Shown here: positions 4,501-26,827 of the stretch, piece after piece
Layout: the number at the start of each line of letters is the position of its first letter
How positions within the stretch are numbered: the stretch's first letter is position 1
Assembly: GCA_965237565.1 (NCBI GenBank)
Contig: OZ250145.1
Coordinates: 571,529-635,528 of the forward strand
DNA: 64,000 nucleotides
From: Bdellovibrionales bacterium
Lineage (GTDB): Bacteria > Bdellovibrionota > Bdellovibrionia > Bdellovibrionales > UBA1609
Direction of reading: 5' to 3'
Notes under the pieces: model-generated
Told to the model about the DNA's origin: nothing
The model's database searches: none
What the model saw: only the letters and a program-made list of their open reading frames with translations
Made by a program: the position numbers and the translations under genes

Positions 4501-4596
4501 TGATTCTAGGTGATATTTTATCTCCTACTTTTTTATAGCTTGCTGTGATTGATGTAATCTTTTTAGATTGTGATGATACTCATCAAGTGCTTTTAA

Positions 4597-5085
4597 TTAC
4601 CAATAGGTCTCAATGAGGAAGTCAACAAAATCACCCTCAGTCGATATACCTTCATCTGTATCATCAGTCATCGATGCAGTTTTATCTGTCTTTTCATCTT
4701 CCTCAATTTCTTTTTTTACTTTCTTAGTGCACCTATCTAACTCTAACTTATTAACTGAAACAATTGAAGAACCATCTAATATTAGTGCTGTATCCTCCCT
4801 TATGTTAGTCATTGTAATAGTCCGAAATTTCCCTACTAACATCACGCTCATAACAGGGCCGTTTTGTACTGTAATCGCGAGTGGATTTTTTTTATTTTTA
4901 CTTATAAAGATTTTTTCAACAGGACTATTTTCGTCTCGAAGACATCTTTTTATTGCAAGTATTCCCGACTCCGAAAATTTTTCACGTTGGCTATCTGGAA
5001 TATCTGCTGCCATCACCTGCTGAGGGCTGACAAAAGCCAAGGCAAGTAACACAAGTATTAATTTGTATTTATTTGTATTTTTCAT
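4597..5085 (-). CDS. hypothetical secreted protein
   Basis: 162-aa ORF with signal peptide MKNTNKYKLILVLLALAFVSPQQVMA and an acidic C-terminal third. No known motif. Confidence 0.55.
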   Translation of the reverse strand: MKNTNKYKLILVLLALAFVSPQQVMAADIPDSQREKFSESGILAIKRCLRDENSPVEKIFISKNKKNPLAITVQNGPVMSVMLVGKFRTITMTNIREDTALILDGSSIVSVNKLELDRCTKKVKKEIEEDEKTDKTASMTDDTDEGISTEGDFVDFLIETYW

Positions 5086-5481: not shown

Positions 5482-5575
5482 TGGCGGAGGGAGAGGGATT
5501 CGAACCCTCGAAATGTTTGACCATTTACACGCTTTCCAAGCGTGTGTCTTCAGTCAGCCACTCGGCCACCCCCCA
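5482..5575 (-). tRNA. tRNA-Ser(GGA), class II with long variable arm, CCA encoded; some irregular features
   Basis: The reverse complement gives anticodon arm cacgc-ttGGAaa-gcgtg, variable arm aaatg/cattt, T arm gaggg-ttcgaat-ccctc and acceptor 3' strand tccctcc-g-cca. Anomalies: U1:C72 mismatch, a D-stem mismatch and a ctga-ctga duplication in the D loop, so it may be impaired. Confidence 0.6.
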
Positions 5576-8068: not shown

Positions 8069-8625
8069 TTCTCTCTGATGAAGGGATTCGAGATCGAATC
8101 AAAAAAAATGAAATAAAGATTGATCCACTTAGCGAAGGCTCTATTCAGTCAGCTTCTGTGGATTTGAAATTGGGATTTGAGTTTATTATTATTAAACATT
8201 GGAATAGTGAAATTTTAAACTTTCGTTCTGAACCGAAATATCAATCTGTTCAAACAGATCAATTTTTATTACCCTCTCATTCTTTTGTTTTAGCCACTAC
8301 AATCGAAACCGTTCAGATTCCTCCTGATTTGACGGCCTTTGTGGAAGGTCGTAGCTCCATTGGTCGAATGGGGCTTTTTATTCAAAATGCGGGATTGGTG
8401 GATCCGGGCTATAAAGGCCAGCTCACTTTAGAACTTTATAATGCTAATTCTTTGCCTATTCGCCTCGATTCGGGTTGGAGAATCTGCCAAATCGTGTTCC
8501 ATAAAATGGATCAAAAGACCACAAACCCTTATAAAGGCAAATACCAAGGCCAAAAAGGAGTGACGGGAACCCGTATTTCTGAGGATAAGGAAAATAGTGT
8601 AAAACCAGATAAAAATCTGCTATAG
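8065..8625 (+). CDS. dcd: dCTP deaminase
   Basis: N-terminus MILSDEGI, then SVDLKLG and [37 protein letters not shown] overlap with the fusA stop. Confidence 0.9.
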
Positions 8626-12031: not shown

Positions 12032-12107
<76 letters not shown>

Positions 12108-13989: not shown

Positions 13990-15402
13990 GTGGTCGGTTC
14001 CTCAGCTATGTATGATGAACCGTATAACAGACTGTGCTATGTTCAAGGTCTTGTGCGTTTTAGCGTCCATTTTTTCTTGATTCATCTATTGATTTTTCCT
14101 TTTTTGCTGGAGGCTCAAGGGAAGTGCAGGCCTGTGATGGTGGCTGCAAGCTCCACTTTGTTTCAATGTGCAAGCTCCAATGTGGCTGTTTTGGTATTGA
14201 GAGGGAATCTGCAACAAAGAGTGGAAGCTGCAGCTAGTTTTTACCGTTCTGATTTTCTCAGTCCTGAACTTGTCGAATATTTTTCTGGGCGAATTACAAA
14301 TAAGATTGAACATAGTGCTATCAGTTGGAGCATTGATCGAATTCACGACCTTGTCTCTATGTATCTTCGAAACAACACTCCTGACGATTGGGTGGATTGG
14401 CCCGTCTATCGTCTATCAGAGCTTTACGAACTGGACTCAGGTGCCATCATGCGAGCGATCAGCATTCCAGACATCAATGTGTATATTAAGTCGATAAAAA
14501 GTGAGCTTCCTAAGAATGAGATCATGAGTTTTGGATGTACAAGTGTTGCAAAAATTTCGGACAATGAGTTCTTCTATGGTCGCAATTTGGATTTTGAAGC
14601 ATTAGGAGTTTGGGATCACTACCCTATGATGACTGTGCATCTCAGTGAACCAGAAGAAAATGTACTTTCCTATCTCGCTTTGGGATCTCATGGAGTGTTT
14701 TTCGGAGGGATCACGGGCATCAACGAAAAAGGCATATTCTTAGCTCTGCATGAGAACACAACAAACCAGATGACATTTAGTGGAATTCCCACACTTCTTA
14801 TTGGAGATAAGCTTTTGCAAACAGCTTCTACCATAGAAGAGGCAATCGCTTTCTTAAAACAATATCGCCCCGGTCCAGTGTGGACTTTTGTCATAGGCTC
14901 TTTGGAGGAGAAGACCATTCGAGCTGTAGAAGTTTCAAAAAATTTTTTTCATGTTAGGAAGATCGAAGATTCTTCATTTGCTCAAACCAATCACCTCAGC
15001 GGAGCTCAACTAAAGGAACTTGAGATCATGTCTTTTTCGGGTCTCAGGAACTCAAAAGCACGATACCGAATTGCTATGGAAAATCTCAATGCCCCTCTTT
15101 TTGATTTAAAACGATTGTTTCACATTATGGGATACCGGTATTCGCGCAAAAAAGAAAATAATAACGACGTGGATATTTTACGACTAAAAACCATACAAAC
15201 TATGCTTCTTCATGATTCTCCTGAACGAGGAAGAAGATTGTATTTTTCCATTGACCCCTCTCCTGTGTCTGCCGGTCGTTTTTTGGGATTCTCTTTGGAG
15301 GAAATTTTTCATACAGCCCGCTCCAAGGATTTTGATGGGTTTCATTACGAGCTTTTGTCTCCACATTCTATGGCACCCTTATTTAGCAAAAAAAATAATT
15401 AA
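13990..15402 (+). CDS. Ntn-hydrolase, peptidase C45/choloylglycine-hydrolase-like (tentative)
   Basis: Candidate nucleophile context SFGCTSVAK, followed by FYGRNLDFE and GGITGINEKGIFLALHE, the pattern of C45/C59 Ntn hydrolases. Start codon uncertain (GTG 13990 or ATG 14008). Confidence 0.55.
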   Translation: MVGSSAMYDEPYNRLCYVQGLVRFSVHFFLIHLLIFPFLLEAQGKCRPVMVAASSTLFQCASSNVAVLVLRGNLQQRVEAAASFYRSDFLSPELVEYFSGRITNKIEHSAISWSIDRIHDLVSMYLRNNTPDDWVDWPVYRLSELYELDSGAIMRAISIPDINVYIKSIKSELPKNEIMSFGCTSVAKISDNEFFYGRNLDFEALGVWDHYPMMTVHLSEPEENVLSYLALGSHGVFFGGITGINEKGIFLALHENTTNQMTFSGIPTLLIGDKLLQTASTIEEAIAFLKQYRPGPVWTFVIGSLEEKTIRAVEVSKNFFHVRKIEDSSFAQTNHLSGAQLKELEIMSFSGLRNSKARYRIAMENLNAPLFDLKRLFHIMGYRYSRKKENNNDVDILRLKTIQTMLLHDSPERGRRLYFSIDPSPVSAGRFLGFSLEEIFHTARSKDFDGFHYELLSPHSMAPLFSKKNN

Positions 15403-15453
15403 GAATACTTAGAATCCTCAAGCCTTGGTATAAATGATAATGGATGACATATC

Positions 15454-15877
15454 ATGAATATGATAAAAAAATTAGAGAGCTCTTTTTTTGTCTTTGCTTT
15501 TCTTGTTCTTTTTTCGAATACAACACTGGCAGCTAAAAGAGTCTACGATCTTGAAATAAAGAAAGAAACAGTCAATAAGACTGGTGAAAATGTGGGCTTC
15601 GCTCTCACCCTAGTACCATTCTCACACAAATCTTCAGGAACAACGAGGAGTTTACGGTGCTATTGTCATTGAACCAAAAGTGAATCCTATACAAGTTGAT
15701 CACGAGTTGGTGATGGTTCTGAGTGACTGGATTAACGAACATCCTCAAGCAGTTTTTGCTCGCTTAAAACGAGATGGTCATGCTTACGCATGGAAAAAAA
15801 ATACCATTGCATCCATTGCCGATGCGATCAGTAAAGACTCCTTGAGTGATTATCTAAAGAACCAATGGAACCGACTC
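15454..15877 (+). pseudogene. multicopper oxidase 5' fragments (copy of 24340.. with an internal ~215-nt deletion)
   Basis: The first ~145 nt are near-identical to 24340-24483. The sequence then jumps to the equivalent of about 24712-24975. The tracked ORFs 15454-15672 and 15680-15937 reproduce MCO peptides. Confidence 0.9.
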
Positions 15878-16040
15878 CCAACGAGATTGCTAAAAAAATG
15901 GAAATGCCGGTGGGTGAGGAGGATGATTCTCATTTAGGAGATTTTATTGAGGACAAGTATGTCATTAATCCTTCTTCAGCCATTGTGAGTTTAAATTTGA
16001 TTGAGCAAACCAGAAGAGTGTTAGCGACTCTCACTCCGAG
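15878..16040 (+). pseudogene. rpoD internal fragment (diverged copy of about 252-487 with a 60-nt deletion)
   Basis: [58 protein letters not shown] matches RpoD 252-487, minus the 20 codons between two ccggtgg repeats. Confidence 0.9.
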
Positions 16041-16075
16041 GGAGGATCGAAGGTTCGAGTCCTTCAGCCCCTACC
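16041..16075 (+). pseudogene. 3' third of the CAU tRNA (copy of 798-832)
   Basis: ggaggatcgaaggttcgagtccttcagcccctacc equals the T arm plus acceptor 3' strand of the tRNA at 759-832, fused directly to the rpoD fragment. Confidence 0.9.
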
Positions 16076-16508
16076 ATTTTTTATCTGGTCTTTGAAAAAT
16101 ATACATACTTTATTTGGATTTTTGGTGATTCTATGATTTTCACAGGATGAAAATCATATTTTAATTATAGATCTTATATTCTAAGCCAATAAAAAATATT
16201 GCAAAACGTACAAAGAGGGAAAATCAACTTATGTTTTACCAGTTGATTCGAATTATTGTTTTTATATCTTGTTTTTTTATTTTTTCTTCTTTTGCTGATG
16301 ATTCTTTTAATGCAAAAAATGTTCTAAAATATTTCTCATAATATTTGGTAGTAAAGGATTTTGATCTCCGTTTTTTTGGAGGTCTAAAAATGTCCAATAA
16401 GCTTCATAATCATTTTGAAACATATAACATGTGCTAAAATTCTCAATTAATGTTTCAGAAAAAAATAATGATTGTTTTTGTTTGTGTGCTTGTTGTGGGA
16501 TGAGCTGT

Positions 16509-16884: not shown

Positions 16885-17952
16885 TTAATGTGAAAATAGT
16901 AAGGAAGTGTTTGAATCTGATTTTTGAATCTCGTCATGATCGTTCTCATCTTCTTGATCGGCTCCTTTTTTGAGTAATAAAGCTATTTTTTTCCTCTTTC
17001 TAAAGGGCAAAACTAACTGCAAAGGAGTGTTGCCGTATTTATTCTTAGCATTCACATCGGCTCCTTTTTTGAGTAATAAAGCTATTTTTTTCCTCTTTCT
17101 AAAGGGCAAAACTAACTGCAAAGGAGTGTTGCCGTATTTATTCTTAGCATTCACATCGGCTCCCTTTTTTACTAATAGTGAGATTATTTCTTTTTTTTTA
17201 TTCCCCCATGTAGCCCAATGTAGAGCCGTCCACCTGTTTTTATCCCTAGACTTTATATTAGCACCATTTTCTATTAGTAATTTTGTCATTCCAATTTGAT
17301 TTGTAATAATTGCTCCAAATAAAGGAGTTTCGCTATGGTTATTTTTAGCATTTACATCAGCCCCTTTTTCTATTAGTAATTTTGCGATTTCAGTTCTCCC
17401 GAAGACAATCATATTATGTAGAGGAGTTTCACCATATTTATTTTTAGCATTTATATCAGCCCCTTCTTGTATTAACAATAACGACATTAATTTTTGGTTT
17501 GGCCACATTGTATCAACATGTAGAGGAGTGTTGCCGTTTTCGTCCATAGTTTTTACACTGGCCCCTTTTTTTATTAATAGTGCTGCTGTTTCTGAAAACA
17601 ACAATTGTAATGCTAAATGTAAAGGAGCTTGGCCCTTTTCGTTCCTAGCATTTACATTGACCCCTTTTTTTACCAACAATAAGGCTCTTTGTTCGTCAAA
17701 GTTTTCTAAGGCTCTAAAGAGAGCAATTGTCCTCATTTGAATATCTCTAGGTTTCACTTCTGAGTCTAATAAGGCGACGACCATCTTATATCTTTGCGAA
17801 GGACTATCACACTGAGGATATCCATTCATATCTTGTGTGATAAAATTTACAATTTCTGTTATTTTGCCATTTTTAGTAGGTCTGTTTAAAAAGTTGTCAT
17901 TACCCCATAGAGAATAAGAGAAAAGAAGAAGAATAAATGTAAATAATTTCAT
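16885..17952 (-). CDS. secreted ankyrin-repeat protein (about 7-8 ANK repeats)
   Basis: Signal peptide MKLFTFILLLFSYSLWG. Repeated G-TPLH..A......i..LLi.kGAdvNakn units. Confidence 0.88.
   Translation of the reverse strand: MKLFTFILLLFSYSLWGNDNFLNRPTKNGKITEIVNFITQDMNGYPQCDSPSQRYKMVVALLDSEVKPRDIQMRTIALFRALENFDEQRALLLVKKGVNVNARNEKGQAPLHLALQLLFSETAALLIKKGASVKTMDENGNTPLHVDTMWPNQKLMSLLLIQEGADINAKNKYGETPLHNMIVFGRTEIAKLLIEKGADVNAKNNHSETPLFGAIITNQIGMTKLLIENGANIKSRDKNRWTALHWATWGNKKKEIISLLVKKGADVNAKNKYGNTPLQLVLPFRKRKKIALLLKKGADVNAKNKYGNTPLQLVLPFRKRKKIALLLKKGADQEDENDHDEIQKSDSNTSLLFSH
16959..17156. repeat. perfect 99-bp tandem duplication (one 33-aa ANK unit x2) inside the ankyrin gene
   Basis: 16959-17057 and 17058-17156 read identically and encode KKGADVNAKNKYGNTPLQLVLPFRKRKKIALLL twice. 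Confidence 0.9.
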
Positions 17953-18235: not shown

Positions 18236-18281
18236 GGTGACAAGGGGGATCGAACCTGCGACCTTCTGAATGCAAATCAGA
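18236..18281 (-). pseudogene. 3' half of tRNA-Cys (copy of about 12038-12080)
   Basis: ggtgacaagggggatcgaacctgcgaccttctgaatgcaaatcaga compares with ggtgacagggatcgaacctgcgaccttctgaatgcaaatcaga. Confidence 0.85.
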
Positions 18282-18679
18282 ATCACTAGCTGGTTTAAAC
18301 CCAATCAATGAATCGGTGAGTATAACTTTTTTTCCATCTGAGAAATTCACTTGTAAAAATTTTTCTTTTTTTACATCCACACGAGAAAGTACATCTTTTA
18401 TATCCTTGGTTTTTTATGTTAAACATTTACCGTCTACTCTTTGGCAAATGGCTAGTTCACCCAGCCCACTTTCTAAAAATCTTAATCCTTGGCTGGGAAG
18501 TGGTTTGAAAACGAATCGGTGTAGGTAATTCAAAATTGGATTGAAAATTTCTCGCTTTATCAATGAAACGTCCAAAGGCTCTCATTTCTATTTGATAGCT
18601 CGGCAAGAAAGTGATGACAAATTGTTCCTCTACGCTTGTATTTCCGTCTTGGCTTTGATCTAAAGGTCCACTGCCCCAA
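18282..18679 (-). pseudogene. patchwork of fragments paralogous to 12216-12734 and to the 3' end of 12930-13880
   Basis: Nucleotide similarity of 18290-18500 to about 12470-12665. Peptide FGRFIDKARNFQSNF compares with FGHFINKQRDFIANF. The tracked ORF 18457-18867 is a chimera of these pieces. Confidence 0.7.
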
Positions 18680-18854
18680 TTTCTATTCTCCAGCAAACAC
18701 CTTGCCCATTGCGTCAATCTCTCATAGTCACTATAATTTTCAATTAAAAATTTTGATAAGTAAGAATACTTAGAATCCCTAGGTTTTGGTATAAACGGTA
18801 ATGGATGACATATCATGAATATGATAAAAAAATTAGAGAGCTCTTTTTTTGTCT
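18680..18854 (+). repeat. 175-bp direct repeat, left copy (MCO upstream region plus first 40 nt of MCO)
   Basis: Reads identically to 24205-24379 on visual alignment. Confidence 0.9.
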
Positions 18855-20029
18855 CCCCTTGGTCCATTTAGAAAAATAGCCTGTCTAAAATATTTGAAGT
18901 TATTTCGTAATTCTTTTTTTGGAAAAACATTTGATAAATTAATTACACTATCTATATTTTCAAATTTAAGTAATGGGTATTCCTTTTGAAACTTAGAATT
19001 ATATTTCTGCAAACTCTCTGCCTTTGCATTAGCTAAAATGCAAATAACCTCTACCTTCTTTGTAATTTCTGGTTTCTTTGACCAATTTAGAAATTTGCAC
19101 ATTTTATTATCAACCCATTTTTTAACTTTTTCATCTGAATAGGTTTTCCAGCTTTTACATTCTATTAAAGTAATGGAAGTGTTTGTCTCAACATAAATAT
19201 CAATTTCTGCTTGATGAGTATAAGAACTTTCATCTCTCCATTTTAATATCTTATTATGTTTAACCGGGATAGTATTGTTTATATTAAGTTTCATATATAA
19301 AAAAAATACTAAAACTTCAAATATATAACCTTGAAGATTACCAATTCTGCTCTCTTTACTTACAATATTATCAAGCAAATCTTTCACTAAATTTTTCAGA
19401 TCTGCCATATCAAAGTTATTTTTTTTCTTAAGAAAGGCCAAATGAAGGAGCTTATTCAATCCAGATAATAAAGAACTTAGCTGAAACGAAGCCAAAGATA
19501 TTGTTACAAAACCTAAATGTCTAAGATTCATTAATATATCTCTCTGCATGTTTCTAAAAATAATAATCGGTAAAATTTTCTGAACACCTTGCTTATTCTT
19601 TTGACTTACAATAGTTTTATACTTTCTTACCAATGGCAAAGTATTATCTTTATTTAATTTTTTATGTATGAAAATTTCACAAACTAACCAACCATGCTCT
19701 CTTTGACTAGTTCGCAAAGGGCTTAAATAACAAGGAGCTATCATACTCCAAGGAATATGTCCAAATTGAGGAATTTTTTCTTTACTCCTTAAAATATTTT
19801 TTTCAAGACCAGTAGAGATAAAATTCATTTTAACAAAAAACTTTTTTATTTCTTTTAAAATTATATCTTCAAGAAATTCATAATTTTGACTATTTTTATC
19901 AGTAAAAGACTCTGCATTATACAAAATATATCTTACACTATTTTCAGTGTTTTCACGTTTTATTAACTTTATAGAAAGTAAGTTATCTAATGCCTCCGTA
20001 AATGTTTTCTGTTTAGAAATTTTTTTCAA
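18833..20029 (-). CDS. PD-(D/E)xK nuclease-fold protein; probably the 3' portion of a gene split at a G9 tract
   Basis: 398-aa ORF with a weak TTG start and no SD. Candidate catalytic core GYIFEVLV ... AEIDIYVE-x8-LIECKSW (E...D...ExK). The last 6 codons derive from the flanking repeat. Confidence 0.65.
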   Translation of the reverse strand: MKKISKQKTFTEALDNLLSIKLIKRENTENSVRYILYNAESFTDKNSQNYEFLEDIILKEIKKFFVKMNFISTGLEKNILRSKEKIPQFGHIPWSMIAPCYLSPLRTSQREHGWLVCEIFIHKKLNKDNTLPLVRKYKTIVSQKNKQGVQKILPIIIFRNMQRDILMNLRHLGFVTISLASFQLSSLLSGLNKLLHLAFLKKKNNFDMADLKNLVKDLLDNIVSKESRIGNLQGYIFEVLVFFLYMKLNINNTIPVKHNKILKWRDESSYTHQAEIDIYVETNTSITLIECKSWKTYSDEKVKKWVDNKMCKFLNWSKKPEITKKVEVICILANAKAESLQKYNSKFQKEYPLLKFENIDSVINLSNVFPKKELRNNFKYFRQAIFLNGPRGDKKRAL

Positions 20030-20049
20030 AGGTAACCCTGAATAAATAG

Positions 20050-20370
20050 CTAAGTATTTTTCATCAACATCCCCCCCCCTCTATATCTCATTGCATTTAA
20101 AATATAACTTTCGGCAATCTTCTCTTTATTACAATATTTATGGAATTTGCCCTTTACTTTACTGAACTTACCAATATAGTAAAACTTTTTATTATTACTG
20201 AAGTTAATTTGCTCTACCTTCTGAACAGGATCCTTGGCCCTAGAAACAGCCCTTAAAGCTGATGTACGACTCATTTTAAATTCATCAATTAATTTTTTAC
20301 TGATTTCATTGGATAATAAACCCCCTCCACTCTCTCTTAAAATTGTAGCAATTTGGTCATTATGGCTCAT
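20050..20370 (-). CDS. small winged-helix-like protein; probably the 5' portion of the split nuclease gene
   Basis: 106-aa ORF. ATILRESGGGLLSNEISKKL...SRTSALRAVSRA resembles a wHTH. It ends 6 codons after a G9 run. Confidence 0.6.
   Translation of the reverse strand: MSHNDQIATILRESGGGLLSNEISKKLIDEFKMSRTSALRAVSRAKDPVQKVEQINFSNNKKFYYIGKFSKVKGKFHKYCNKEKIAESYILNAMRYRGGGMLMKNT
20071..20079. repeat. homopolymeric C9/G9 tract (candidate slipped-strand switch)
   Basis: Plus strand ccccccccc, coding strand GGG GGG GGG. The two flanking ORFs exchange reading frame exactly here. Confidence 0.9.
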
Positions 20371-20465
20371 ATAAACTCTTTATGTCTTTCTTTAATATTG
20401 TGTGACTAATAACTTTTGACTCTAACCATTCAAGATGGGTGTTTCTCGTAAGTCTTAGATGGGAA

Positions 20466-20498
20466 GGTGGAGGCACAAGAGTCGAACTCGCTTGGCGG
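20466..20498 (-). other. tmRNA/tRNA 3'-end-like fragment (possible relic att site)
   Basis: ggtggaggcacaagagtcgaactcgcttggcgg compares with the ssrA 3' end at 26475: ggtggaggcgacgagagtcgaactcgtgtccg. Same orientation. The T-arm-like stem is retained. Confidence 0.55.
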
Positions 20499-20516
20499 AA
20501 AGAATTTTTTGCAGAG

Positions 20517-22379
20517 CTAAAACTTATCTTTTATACTTTTCAACTTGTCTTCTATTTTTTCAAACAGCTTGGTTATAATTTCCTTAGTCGTTTCGTCTAA
20601 TTTGATTGAATCTCCACTTTGGCAAGCTTCTAAAAATTTTTTTGCGAGCAAAACTTTATCTATACTCTCCTTTTTCACATATTCCGAATTAGATTCAGAA
20701 TAAGTTTTGCTCGCATTTCTGGGCAGCACAAATTTTCTAAAATCAGATGACGAGAAGATGTCCTCAATACTCTCTTTCTTCTTATTATCAGAAATAGAAA
20801 GAATTAAATCCTTTGTTACTAACCAATTATCTTTAAGATTTTTCTTGCCGTCTTTTTCACCTTGATCATTGTCATAGAGATAAACAACTTTTGCGCCCCA
20901 ACCATGCAAAATTGTACCGATAATCGACATATTCCCAGCTCCACCGCCGAAAATAAAGTTCACATTGTTTTCATTATTAAGTAATTTTTTGAAGGCATTG
21001 AGATAATATACATCTGAAGGGCCTTCAACTACAACATTATTCACTTTATTCAATTCTGATATTCCCGCATTCAATTCAAGTCCGATTGCAGTCAGGATTG
21101 GAGTAAGTGTCTCTTTATCAGCTAAAGCGTGAACTTTATTTTCTATTGTTGTGCCTTTAATCTTGTCCTTATGTATAAGACGAATCCGGTTCAGTTTGTC
21201 GGCCTCTAAAAGATACGGAGAATGGGTGGAAAAAATTAACTGAGCTTTTTTTGCTGAATCTTCTAATTTTTCCAAAATATTTTTTTGTGCTTTTGCGTGT
21301 AAAAAAAGCCCAGGTTCGTCAATCAGAATTATATTCGATACATTCTCATTTGCTCGTGCAGAAATTTTGATATAAAAAGACAAATGCCATTGACGACCTT
21401 TGCTCCTCAATCGTAGTTCGTAGGGTTGATCATCTTCTTGTATCCAAACGTACAGATGTTCAGAATCCCAGTCGACACTCAAAATTGAATCATCCTGACT
21501 CCAAAATTTTTTATAATCCTTATTGAGCTTGATGTTTATATCGACTTTGTGTTTTTTTTTATCTCTGTCATCAGCACTTTTTATTATGTCAGGCTTTAAA
21601 TCGCTAATCACTGACAAATCTTTAATCCATTCGTTTTCCTCTAGTTCAGCAAGTAGTATTTTGTCAGGAAAAATATTCTCAAAGGACTTAAACAGAATAA
21701 ATTTTGGTATGCGTTTCTTTAAGGACTCAAGAAATTTTTCCTTGGTGGTAAAAAAATTTTCCAGATTATTTATCTTTAATTCTATTTCAGAAAATAATTT
21801 CAGAAAATTATTGTGTATCTTTTCATCAACAATACTTTGGATGTTTGGAGTTACAGTATTTTTGAACTCTATAAAAAGGTTCTTGGAATTAGCAAAATTA
21901 GAAAAATCAAAATCAAATAACTCTCCTCCCAACACTGTATTTTCTTCCCTGATCTTCTTTACTTCATTCCACTTGTCCTCGATAGATTTTTGAACTTTCT
22001 CTATCTTCTCGCTATCAAAAATTTCATTCTCTAGGGTATTTTCCCTGAAAGAGTATCGGTCTGGAAAAATTTTTATAACCTCAAGGTCAATGTTTTTAGT
22101 TACCTCTACCGGACTTTCTATTTCTTTCAGAATTTTTTTCGCCATGTCTTTTTTAAGAGTAAAGGTTACGGAAATTTCAGGTTTTTTATCAGGTGATTGA
22201 ATAGACTTTGCTTCTTCTCTTATATTTTTTTCAGTATCAAAATCCTCCAATGCTTCAAGAATTGAAGTTTTACCTGATTCATTTTTACCAGCGAAAATAG
22301 AAATTGTGTCATTAAGATAACAGTCACCGCTATCAATGATTGATTTATAGTTTTTGATTTTGAATTTCTTTAAATTCAT
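20517..22379 (-). CDS. OLD-family nuclease (ABC-type ATPase + C-terminal Toprim)
   Basis: Walker A FAGKNESGKTS, Walker B ILIDEPGLFLH, H-loop FSTHSP. Toprim motifs VVVEGPSD and LYDNDQGEKDG. I start it at ATG 22379 (MNLKKFKIKNYKSI; AAGGA about 9 nt upstream), 4 nt after the HNH stop. Confidence 0.85.
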   Translation of the reverse strand: MNLKKFKIKNYKSIIDSGDCYLNDTISIFAGKNESGKTSILEALEDFDTEKNIREEAKSIQSPDKKPEISVTFTLKKDMAKKILKEIESPVEVTKNIDLEVIKIFPDRYSFRENTLENEIFDSEKIEKVQKSIEDKWNEVKKIREENTVLGGELFDFDFSNFANSKNLFIEFKNTVTPNIQSIVDEKIHNNFLKLFSEIELKINNLENFFTTKEKFLESLKKRIPKFILFKSFENIFPDKILLAELEENEWIKDLSVISDLKPDIIKSADDRDKKKHKVDINIKLNKDYKKFWSQDDSILSVDWDSEHLYVWIQEDDQPYELRLRSKGRQWHLSFYIKISARANENVSNIILIDEPGLFLHAKAQKNILEKLEDSAKKAQLIFSTHSPYLLEADKLNRIRLIHKDKIKGTTIENKVHALADKETLTPILTAIGLELNAGISELNKVNNVVVEGPSDVYYLNAFKKLLNNENNVNFIFGGGAGNMSIIGTILHGWGAKVVYLYDNDQGEKDGKKNLKDNWLVTKDLILSISDNKKKESIEDIFSSSDFRKFVLPRNASKTYSESNSEYVKKESIDKVLLAKKFLEACQSGDSIKLDETTKEIITKLFEKIEDKLKSIKDKF

Positions 22380-22383
22380 AAAA

Positions 22384-22986
22384 TTATTCCTTCCACTCAA
22401 TATGCCCATTTATATCGTGGTCTTCATAAGTCTGCAAGATATCGGTGCAAAAATCTTGAAGTGTTTGGTTTTTCTTTTTCTTCGCAAGATTGTAAAGGCG
22501 AATAAACATTTTCTTTCCAGTTTCAGTTTGCTTTAGATTTTTCTTTAAAAAATTGTGTTGTGCACAAAGTGTTTGTCCGTTATATATTGTTGCCTTCCCG
22601 CCAAGATCTTTTGCCTTAATATGATCAACATGAAGCTCTATACCGTTTTTTTTGTCTAGTCCGCAAATCACGCATTTATAACCGTCGCGCTCCAAAATCT
22701 TTGTTTTTTGTGTGGTAGAAAAATTCTCCAGATTTCTCTGCTTCACTTTGTTAGGGTTATAGAGATAAACGCCTTTTTTTATCTTTATCAAACACCCCTC
22801 TTGATGAAGACGGCGAATACCTCTATCAGGGTCTCTAAAAACTTTTCTTGTTCGTTTTTTCCATTCCTTCATTGCCCAATCTACAATTGTTGGGTGAGAA
22901 ATATTCCGGTTGGGATTTTTTTTGAAAAATTCCATGAGTAAATCGAGCTGTGTCTGTGATCTTTTGTTATTTTTTTTCTTTGCCAT
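22384..22986 (-). CDS. HNH endonuclease with N-terminal wHTH-like region (candidate restriction subunit)
   Basis: RDGYKCVICG...ELHVDHIKAKDLGG...NGQTLCAQHN shows the HNH motif with CxxC/CxxH zinc ligands. 4-nt gaps to both neighbours. Confidence 0.85.
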   Translation of the reverse strand: MAKKKNNKRSQTQLDLLMEFFKKNPNRNISHPTIVDWAMKEWKKRTRKVFRDPDRGIRRLHQEGCLIKIKKGVYLYNPNKVKQRNLENFSTTQKTKILERDGYKCVICGLDKKNGIELHVDHIKAKDLGGKATIYNGQTLCAQHNFLKKNLKQTETGKKMFIRLYNLAKKKKNQTLQDFCTDILQTYEDHDINGHIEWKE

Positions 22987-22990
22987 ATAT

Positions 22991-23827
22991 TTAGAATAAA
23001 CTAGCTTGCTCGATTTCTGCTTCTTGTTGTAAACGATTAATGGCTATATCGCAATAGCCCTTATCAATATCAACTCCAATTCCCTTTCGTTTGTGCAAGC
23101 TTGCGGCAATAAGTGTTGAACCACTTCCGAGAAACGGATCAAGGACTGTATCACCAACAAAGCTAAATAGTTTTATGCACCTTCTTGGAAGCTCAATCGG
23201 AAAAGCAGCAGGATGTCCACCCGCTCCCTTCTTGCTTTGGCCATTGAATGTCCATACTCCATTCGTCCAATCCATAAATTCTTGTTTTGTTATGTCGTTT
23301 TTCTTTCGTCCATTATTCTTTTTCCAGCTTTTCTTATACAAAACTAAAATTACTTCAACAGGAGCGATTACATAAGGAGCAGAGGCGGACATCCAAGAAC
23401 CCCAAGCAGTCCTACGCGAAATATTACCCTCATTCCAAATAATTGTTGAGTGATAATTCCAACCAACCTTTCGGGCAATATTTGTAATGTCAGCGCAGAC
23501 TGCTTGTTGGCCACCCTTATTTTTATCAAGAGGAATATTCAAACAAAATCGTCCATCAGCTCTTGCAAGGTCATAACATTTTTTGAGCCATTTTTTGGTA
23601 AACTCCAAATACCCGCCATAGGATAAATCGTCCTTGTGAGAATTGTAGTGAACATCTACATTGTAGGGTGGTGATGTAATAATGAGATCAACGGACGATT
23701 TTGGAATGTCAGCTATTTTCAAAATGTTGTCTTTGTAGATGAAAATATCGTCGTGCTTGAAGTAATAAGACGACTTCTGTGCTTGAGTGGTATCTCGTGT
23801 ATTTTTTTGTGTTATAATTTCTTGCAT
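22991..23827 (-). CDS. beta-class DNA amino-methyltransferase (N4-cytosine or N6-adenine)
   Basis: Motif IV DLIITSPPYNV lies N-terminal to motif I VLDPFLGSGSTLIAA. This is the beta permutation, and SPPY favours m4C. Confidence 0.9.
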   Translation of the reverse strand: MQEIITQKNTRDTTQAQKSSYYFKHDDIFIYKDNILKIADIPKSSVDLIITSPPYNVDVHYNSHKDDLSYGGYLEFTKKWLKKCYDLARADGRFCLNIPLDKNKGGQQAVCADITNIARKVGWNYHSTIIWNEGNISRRTAWGSWMSASAPYVIAPVEVILVLYKKSWKKNNGRKKNDITKQEFMDWTNGVWTFNGQSKKGAGGHPAAFPIELPRRCIKLFSFVGDTVLDPFLGSGSTLIAASLHKRKGIGVDIDKGYCDIAINRLQQEAEIEQASLF

Positions 23828-24204: not shown

Positions 24205-24379
24205 TTTCTATTCTCCAGCAAACACCTTGCCCATTGCGTCAATCTCTCATAGTCACTATAATTTTCAATTAAAAATTTTGATAAGTAAGAATACTTAGAA
24301 TCCCTAGGTTTTGGTATAAACGGTAATGGATGACATATCATGAATATGATAAAAAAATTAGAGAGCTCTTTTTTTGTCT
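24205..24379 (+). repeat. 175-bp direct repeat, right copy
   Basis: Reads identically to 18680-18854. It includes the authentic MCO start at 24340. Confidence 0.9.
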
Positions 24380-26473: not shown

Positions 26474-26827
26474 TGGTGGAGGCGACGAGAGTCGAACTCG
26501 TGTCCGTATATCCTTCACATTCAGGCAAGCTACATGCTTAGTTGGTATTCATACACCAGCTTCTTCCTGACCAACAAAAAAAAGCCGGGTTTTTACCAGT
26601 AGATTTAAATTTTCCACCCTAGTAAAACAGTGAAAAATCGAGACGACTGAATCGACGCTTTCCACATTCCATCGTCAAAAATGCAGTCAACGGCTACCTA
26701 TTTAATTAGGCAACAAATGCAACTTGAGAGTTGCCAACTATTTAGTAAGCACATTTTTAAAGAGGTCCTCATGCGCCTCTGCATGCTCCTGAAGCTTCAT
26801 GACCTACGTCGAAGCCATAACGCCCCC
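26474..26827 (-). ncRNA. ssrA: tmRNA (ssrA)
   Basis: The reverse complement starts gggggcgttatggcttcgacgtagg and ends cgagttcgactctcgtcgcctccacca. Candidate tag ORF ggc aac tct caa gtt gca ttt gtt gcc taa. Confidence 0.9.

Follow-up and report, generated by a model that had tools for sequence, protein, structure and literature searches.

In a 64,000-nt stretch of contig OZ250145.1 from a Bdellovibrionales bacterium (hereafter the window) we found two consecutive open reading frames (ORFs) on the minus strand, encoding 106 and 398 amino acids (aa), between which the reading frame changes at a run of nine guanines (G9). Sequence comparison and structure modelling strongly support that these ORFs are two halves of one gene (18833-20370, minus strand). 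With seven or ten guanines this gene would encode a single protein of about 511 or 512 aa, consisting of a first winged helix (wH1), a helical hairpin, a second winged helix (wH2), a middle domain, a linker and a NERD-like nuclease domain. The G9 run could act as an on/off switch of this gene, but a mutation that simply inactivated it, or an error in the consensus sequence, would explain the data almost equally well.

On the minus strand the junction (20090-20050) reads ATG AGA TAT AGA GGGGGGGGG ATG TTG ATG AAA AAT ACT TAG. The poly-G tract (plus-strand C9, 20071-20079) lies on conserved Arg-Gly-Gly codons and is located exactly at the frame switch, as had been stated in a previous interpretation of this DNA (the sequence-only reading). 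The 106-aa ORF (20050-20370, minus strand) represents the N-terminal fragment and comprises wH1 and two helices up to the conserved RGG, followed by six out-of-frame residues and a TAG. The 398-aa ORF (18833-20029, minus strand) represents the C-terminal 78% of the protein, begins inside wH2, at residue 115, and is devoid of a conserved 'SGxP' segment (residues 101-114). Its frame is closed by a TAG at 20083-20081, immediately 5' of the tract as previously described, and is open from 20080 onward. Only 20 nt separate the stop of the first ORF from the TTG start of the second. This start had been called a TTG lacking a Shine-Dalgarno sequence; the TTG is correct, but the lack was slightly overstated, because a weak AGGG is found 6 nt upstream.

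Editing the tract in silico gave products of 511 aa with G7, 101 aa with G8, 106 aa with G9, 512 aa with G10 and 102 aa with G11, which agrees with the earlier prediction that either G7 or G10 would result in one protein of about 512 aa. The locus thus shares two features with contingency loci: changes in tract length toggle in silico between a full-length, family-like product and a truncated one, and the G9 within the coding sequence exceeds the length regarded as hypermutable (about 7-8 or more G/C). It is the only G/C run of at least 7 nt in the window. A run of this kind is mildly unusual at window scale, because a G9 or C9 also occurred in 10 of 100 dinucleotide-shuffled versions of the window sequence (mean 0.15). 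The split gene, with a GC content of 27.7% compared to 38.2% for the window, is richer in A and T than any other gene of the region. Of the glycine codons in the window, 15% are GGG, and none of the 76 Gly-Gly pairs of other genes is encoded by GGG-GGG. When 171 homopolymers were scanned for length changes that would join ORFs, two substantial ORFs were joined by the G9 alone, apart from a trivial case of a T7 at the 3' end of the split gene.

An exhaustive HMMER search with the G10 product against 1.84 billion cluster representatives retrieved 272 relatives at E <= 1e-3, 130 of them at E <= 1e-10. Their length was mostly 477-550 aa, with a mode of 480-530 aa. After local re-alignment, 143 of the 150 best relatives covered the junction (query residues 85-135) in one stretch, and the seven others were the two pieces from the window itself, two proteins discussed below (P0042 and P0119) and three N-terminally short proteins. 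In a tblastn search the fused protein was matched in single pieces over residues 13-424 on 97 plasmids. Modelling of the fused protein with AlphaFold2, from an alignment of 72 sequences, gave a mean predicted local distance difference test score (pLDDT) of 88.2 and a predicted template modelling score (pTM) of 0.84. With pLDDT values of 89 (residues 91-100), 94 (101-110) and 96 (111-120), the model is confident across the junction. The interpretation as one gene, as proposed in the sequence-only reading, was therefore borne out by homology as well as by modelling. Those testable outcomes that had been named as speaking against it were not observed: homologues and a structure model span the junction, and the C-terminus models as a PD-(D/E)xK fold.

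Searches with a word-indexed protein method, using either the fused protein or the 72-sequence profile, returned the window's own ORF only, and the family became visible with exhaustive HMMER alone. An exact look-up of the window proteins gave no record for the 398-aa product or for the neighbouring OLD protein. Three relatives were considered as possible parallel splits and rejected. P0042 and P0119 share the end point of the window fragment and could have represented phase-variable splits of the same type; P0042 turned out to be cut by an insertion sequence (IS), and P0119 is located on a frameshift-riddled long-read contig of 2x coverage. P0004 is broken elsewhere, at a G5T6 run, which we attribute to long-read frameshift noise.

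In the model of the fused protein, wH1 (residues 1-66) and a helical hairpin are followed by wH2 (approximately 101-150), an alpha/beta middle domain (approximately 160-296), a helical linker and a C-terminal domain (approximately 344-480). The winged-helix region that had been suspected at the N-terminus was thus recovered, in fact twice. The modelled C-terminal domain shows an alpha-beta-beta-beta-alpha-beta topology, with pLDDT values of 91-95 over residues 371-480. Positions G348, D391, E404, C405 and K406 are at least 90% conserved among the 72 sequences and correspond to the motifs GYIFE, EIDIY and IECK; D391, E404 and K406 are present in the window protein. Among the 72 family members, 15 matched the Pfam domain NERD (E <= 0.01) and eight matched Mrr_cat weakly. 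The window protein itself scored 19.7 bits against NERD (PF08378; E = 0.0012), below the gathering threshold of 22.1 bits. Family members also matched the PADLOC models for CARF-associated PD-(D/E)xK nucleases, and profile searches against the PDB gave AF1548 (E = 8e-4), a DUF1887 family protein (PDB 8bao), Cdn1 and Can2. Foldseek retrieved VC1899, AF1548, Can2, Cdn1, McrC and N.BspD6I, with probabilities of 0.97-1.00 for 1xmx, 1y88, Can2, Cdn1 and McrC at whole-protein template modelling (TM) scores of 0.2-0.25. By its conserved motifs and modelled fold, the C-terminal domain is a member of the PD-(D/E)xK nuclease superfamily of the NERD/Mrr/Can2 kind. This supports the previous assignment, in which the same motifs had been named: G348, D391, E404 and K406 are near-invariant, and the fold and profile matches point to the same superfamily.

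Modelled alone, the middle domain reached a pLDDT of 86 and showed weak likeness to NucS/EndoMS and Card1. It carries a conserved D232, which is replaced by E in the window protein, and an invariant K250. According to the model, this part of the protein is likely to represent another domain of nuclease fold, which may be degenerate.

No full-length model of this family was found in Pfam, NCBIfam, PADLOC or PHROGs, which is in line with the earlier remark that the architecture does not correspond to a named defence protein. A PDB sequence search with the single protein gave no match, and Mrr_N was not matched by any of the 72 family members. Relatives are annotated as 'NERD domain-containing protein' or as 'hypothetical'. 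By the tests made, the protein is a member of an unnamed family and is not a Gabija or CARF effector protein. Its architecture is analogous to that of Mrr enzymes, from which it is probably distinct. Architecture and genomic context suggest that it most likely functions as a stand-alone nuclease against foreign nucleic acid, guided by its winged helices.

The closest characterized parallel for the tract is cj0031c of Campylobacter jejuni NCTC11168, which likewise carries an intragenic G9 in a restriction-type gene, where a change of one nucleotide in either direction toggles between a full-length and a truncated protein and phage restriction is affected in the ON state (PMC3401435, PMC4889913). 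The two genes encode different types of enzymes, as the window protein is a winged helix-winged helix-nuclease protein without a methyltransferase domain. In Campylobacter, moreover, switching has been measured and about 29 tracts are present per genome (PMC4965091), whereas the window gene has a single tract that was read from sequence alone.

For the protein, a counterpart is WP_020833675.1, a 'NERD domain-containing protein' of the same family encoded on the 3,609-bp Salmonella plasmid pCFSAN059545, with homologues on IncF plasmids. It aligned with the fused window protein in one piece by tblastn (24.9% identity, residues 13-424) and agrees with it in length (approximately 505 aa) and domain order. 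The plasmid proteins differ in that they are proteobacterial, plasmid-borne and encoded by uninterrupted single ORFs, whose RGG codons contain no G run longer than G5-G6. Mrr-type Type IV restriction endonucleases, which are modification-dependent, resemble the modelled family in combining an N-terminal winged helix with a C-terminal PD-(D/E)xK domain in one stand-alone polypeptide. The window family differs by two winged helices, an additional nuclease-like middle domain and the lack of Mrr_N, and the window protein reaches no Mrr model. The nuclease domains of Can2, Card1 and Cdn1, together with VC1899 and AF1548, were the best profile and fold matches and show the same D...ExK layout; unlike these CARF effectors, the window protein lacks a CARF sensor domain and is not located in a CRISPR or cyclic-oligoadenylate context, and the likeness is limited to whole-protein TM-scores of 0.2-0.25. 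The anti-RNA-phage endonuclease ZwsA (Zowangsin) of Pseudomonas aeruginosa is likewise a single-protein effector with a NERD-type E/D...ExK domain (bioRxiv 10.64898/2026.04.06.716636). It has a VHS-DUF647-NERD-S4 architecture and targets RNA; its likeness to the window protein was seen at the domain level only.

The junction coincides with the conserved 'AL..RGG' motif of the family, and the corresponding codons of relatives give an indication of how the tract might have arisen. They read AGA GGG GGA in L003 (G5) and CGC GGG GGG ATT in L006 and L007 (G6), and no G run is present in L088 (CGG GGA GGT), L091 (CGT GGC GGG) or L004 (CGT GAT GGA). In the window the residue following RGG is Asp (GAT), and AGA GGG GGG GAT would be a natural in-frame G7. 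The spacing of the relatives is reproduced by G7. The sequence-only reading had presented G10 as a restoring length, which is correct with regard to the frame, but G10 adds one glycine to the family spacing. Since G7 represents the family spacing, the tract must have changed in length at least twice, either G7 to G9 or G7 to G10 to G9. The rest of the 1.5-kb gene is without a second lesion and all near-invariant catalytic residues are kept. Comparison with relatives had been suggested as a check for single-ORF versions and for variation in tract length. The former were found, but a tract of at least 7 nt at these codons was present in none of the ten relatives for which DNA was available.

The contig L003, a 1.99-Mb circular contig with the closest full-length homologue (P0002), contains two G9 tracts of its own (4580-4588 and 4650-4658), 70 nt apart. 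These are intergenic, between a large S8-peptidase/He_PIG surface-type gene and a pantothenate kinase gene, and show a more typical promoter-region contingency layout than the tract studied here.

As the leading, still tentative explanation we consider a genuine slipped-strand frameshift which leaves the gene OFF, with G9 making reversion to G10 far likelier than ordinary mutation. The gene lies in a recently inserted low-GC defence block. A poly-G run would have expanded from the conserved Arg-Gly-Gly codons, and slipped-strand length change, from an in-frame G7 to the present G9, would have broken the frame. The sequenced allele would represent the OFF state. The pieces made in this state are unlikely to work: the conserved stretch 101-114, up to the near-invariant P114, is absent from both of them, and the gene is cut within wH2. 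G9 is within the length range of frequent polymerase slippage, and a gain of one guanine to G10 would restore the full-length protein far more often than ordinary mutation could. Nine is also the modal length of polyG tracts in C. jejuni, where the G9 tract of cj0031 (Type IIG restriction-modification) has a high switching rate and thereby changes the restriction of phages (PMC3401435, PMC4889913). In this way a costly nuclease would be turned on and off by mutation; the enzyme presumably restricts foreign DNA by winged-helix-guided binding and PD-(D/E)xK cleavage. That the G9 is a selected contingency switch, by which a small-genome uncultured Bdellovibrionales-type bacterium might toggle a costly stand-alone defence protein with a double nuclease fold, is a further step which we regard as rather unlikely.

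Several observations weigh against the interpretation as a slipped-strand OFF state. There is no close orthologue above approximately 39% identity among about 15 billion proteins, and scans with the fused protein did not find the locus in genome or metagenome contigs. The tract is neither conserved in the ten relatives nor part of a set of tracts in the window, and with no other long G/C run in 64 kb there is nothing to indicate contingency loci across the genome. The host belongs to a lineage whose Lon protein is 76-81% identical to that of uncultured Bdellovibrionales metagenome-assembled genomes (MAGs), and this lineage is not known for repeat-mediated switching. Nearby fragments of a multicopper oxidase gene and of an rpoD-like gene indicate that decay is active in the region.

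These fragments, located at 15395-15874 (multicopper-oxidase 5' pieces) and 15865-16095 (rpoD-like) in a rearrangement hotspot, would also be in line with a terminal pseudogene. A one-off slippage would then have knocked out a nuclease gene gained by horizontal transfer, possibly on account of its toxicity or lack of use, and the gene would now be decaying without ON variants that circulate or are selected. The occurrence of the long tract in this gene and in none of the ten relatives, the lack of other such tracts around it, and the conserved GGG-GGG codons as a natural seed for accidental slippage all agree with such a scenario, and another family member has been disrupted too, by an IS insertion in L001. 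On the other hand, the 1.5-kb gene has no second lesion and has kept its near-invariant catalytic residues. This intactness is weak evidence either way, because the perfect repeats flanking the locus indicate that little time has elapsed. The tract is moreover two steps away from the family-typical in-frame length, so that a single accident does not explain it, and with G9 present reversion by slippage would be mechanistically hard to avoid (PMC3401435). We consider such a pseudogene possible and more doubtful than the slipped-strand OFF state. An error of consensus or assembly, by which a true in-frame G10 (512 aa) was under-called by one base, as occurs at long G/C homopolymers of long-read assemblies, appears unlikely. 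G10 is the nearest in-frame length, the source contig is 1.33 Mb long, and the nearest relatives of both organism and gene come from long-read MAG assemblies. Two of the sequences in the same gene family, L002 (2x) and L004 (11x), show obvious homopolymer frameshifts. For Nanopore R10.4 data the greatest difficulty has been described for homopolymers of 8-9 nt, 'especially with cytosines', and of 10 nt upward, yet consensus sequences are reported to resolve the vast majority of homopolymers below 11 nt (PMC9262707). Against such an error, the A/T homopolymers of 8-11 nt that fall within long ORFs of the window, 26 in number and including an A11, are all in frame, no other homopolymer splits a gene in the 64 kb, and housekeeping genes agree with their family models over the full length.

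Two further explanations would leave the G9 allele functional as it stands. In the case of programmed recoding, the run would serve as a site of -1 ribosomal frameshifting (G GGG GGG) or of transcriptional slippage, and one allele would give rise to the 106-aa protein and to the full-length nuclease. A slip by -1 at the final two GGG codons does enter the frame of the second ORF exactly and yields the same 512 aa as G10, and the predicted folding of the 126 nt that start with the tract is somewhat better than that of shuffled sequences (z = -2.1). This signal is weak and non-specific; the predicted fold pairs the tract with distant sequence, and no compact stem-loop or pseudoknot is found 5-9 nt downstream. 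The slippery run is also absent from the relatives, which are ordinary single ORFs, and to our knowledge G/C runs are not established as efficient slippage sites. Recoding therefore seems very improbable to us. Hardly credible is a gene fission that left a small winged-helix regulator and a nuclease as genuine genes, each translated on its own. Re-initiation would be conceivable, because the first ORF stops 20 nt before a TTG that is preceded by the weak AGGG. The cut, however, lies inside wH2, neither product contains residues 101-114 with the near-invariant P114 at their end, the two parts are joined in 143 of the 150 best relatives, and the few short relatives are artefacts or truncations.

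The slipped-strand OFF state would concern a gene in a defence-related neighbourhood. Upstream of the split gene are encoded, all on the minus strand, an OLD-family ATPase with a TOPRIM nuclease domain (630 aa, 20517-22409), which represents a separate defence module, an HNH endonuclease (200 aa, 22384-22986), and an N4/N6 DNA methyltransferase (278 aa, 22991-23827; Type II methyltransferase model, E = 6e-94), for which the HNH endonuclease is probably the restriction partner. All three genes are full length, and with them the setting is a defence island, in line with the earlier suggestion of a candidate defence gene. The HNH and OLD ORFs overlap by 26 nt (22384-22409), which might reflect translational coupling or an OLD start called too far upstream.

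The four genes form a block of 5.35 kb with a GC content of 32.1%, compared to 38.2% in the window, between two perfect direct repeats of 175 nt. The left copy (18680-18854) holds the last approximately six codons of the split gene, and the right copy (24205-24379) contains the upstream region and the first approximately 40 nt of a multicopper-oxidase gene that starts at 24340. Perfect repeats bracketing a low-GC block indicate that the block was inserted recently, probably through a single crossover. The 5' end of the oxidase gene occurs a third time, in degraded form, at 15395-15874, followed by the rpoD-like fragment, and a 36-nt piece of a tRNA-Ala gene (12032-12107) recurs at 18246-18281, with flanking DNA (18289-18493) of 78% similarity. 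The arrangement looks as if insertions by single crossover had occurred serially at one hotspot, located between tRNA-Ala and the transfer-messenger RNA (tmRNA) gene (26474-26827). An ankyrin-repeat gene in the same region (16885-17952, minus strand) contains a perfect 99-nt tandem duplication (16957-17055 and 17056-17154) which equals one 33-residue ankyrin unit; this is a recent repeat expansion and possibly variable in length. Elsewhere in the window, ARAGORN predicted a tRNA-Ser(gga) at 5486-5567 and a tRNA-Asn(att) at 8158-8246. Both are below the Rfam tRNA gathering threshold and are probably false positives.

A partnership with the OLD protein was also considered. In four of the 12 genomic contexts sampled, AAA_15/OLD ATPase genes adjoin family members or are one gene away. 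Contexts with a neighbouring ATPase were L088 (3079-7497), L089 (6001-12156), L090 (451-4206) and the window (18833-22409), with two Gabija-like pairs of OLD and UvrD. The pairing of the Gabija type was not found for the split gene, which has no helicase domain. We rejected OLD as a functional partner, as the neighbouring ATPases are alike at the P-loop level only and the family occurs alone on 3.6-kb plasmids. Since the ATPases are mutually unrelated beyond the P-loop, their proximity probably reflects clustering in defence islands and not a fixed partnership.

The family comprises approximately 270 clusters at 50% identity, is not represented by a curated model, and occurs both in defence islands and on hundreds of plasmids of enterobacteria. 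With an Escherichia coli member as query it was detected on 357 plasmid records, and on 3.6-kb ColE1-type plasmids the family member is the only gene not related to replication. One example is L005 (NZ_CP040563.1, 3,609 bp), which together with about 20 similar ColE1/Rop-type plasmids of 3.5-3.6 kb from E. coli, Salmonella and Klebsiella carries a member of approximately 505 aa as sole cargo. The 90% identity cluster of this small-plasmid member contains 453 members. On IncF plasmids family members occur beside HEPN, RES, DUF4238 and BREX genes, and in metagenomic defence islands together with TIR, caspase and methyltransferase genes. The family was absent from the phage genome collection searched. 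Because it is present on tiny plasmids that have no other cargo, an anti-phage or anti-plasmid activity would be cheap to assay in E. coli.

With regard to annotation, the two ORFs are better described as a single frameshifted gene than as a pair of hypothetical proteins. That restriction genes can be switched by homopolymers is well established. Should the tract indeed switch, the locus would be one more case of homopolymer phase variation of a restriction-type gene, of note mainly because its host is an environmental Bdellovibrionales-like bacterium as opposed to a host-adapted pathogen. If the switch were in addition selected, homopolymer phase variation of defence genes would extend beyond the classic host-adapted pathogens, and a first functional handle would be gained on a family that constitutes the sole cargo of common 3.6-kb plasmids of E. 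coli and Salmonella. The protein family itself, with its architecture of two winged helices, a nuclease-like domain and a NERD-type nuclease domain, is the more useful by-product and worth assaying for defence activity.

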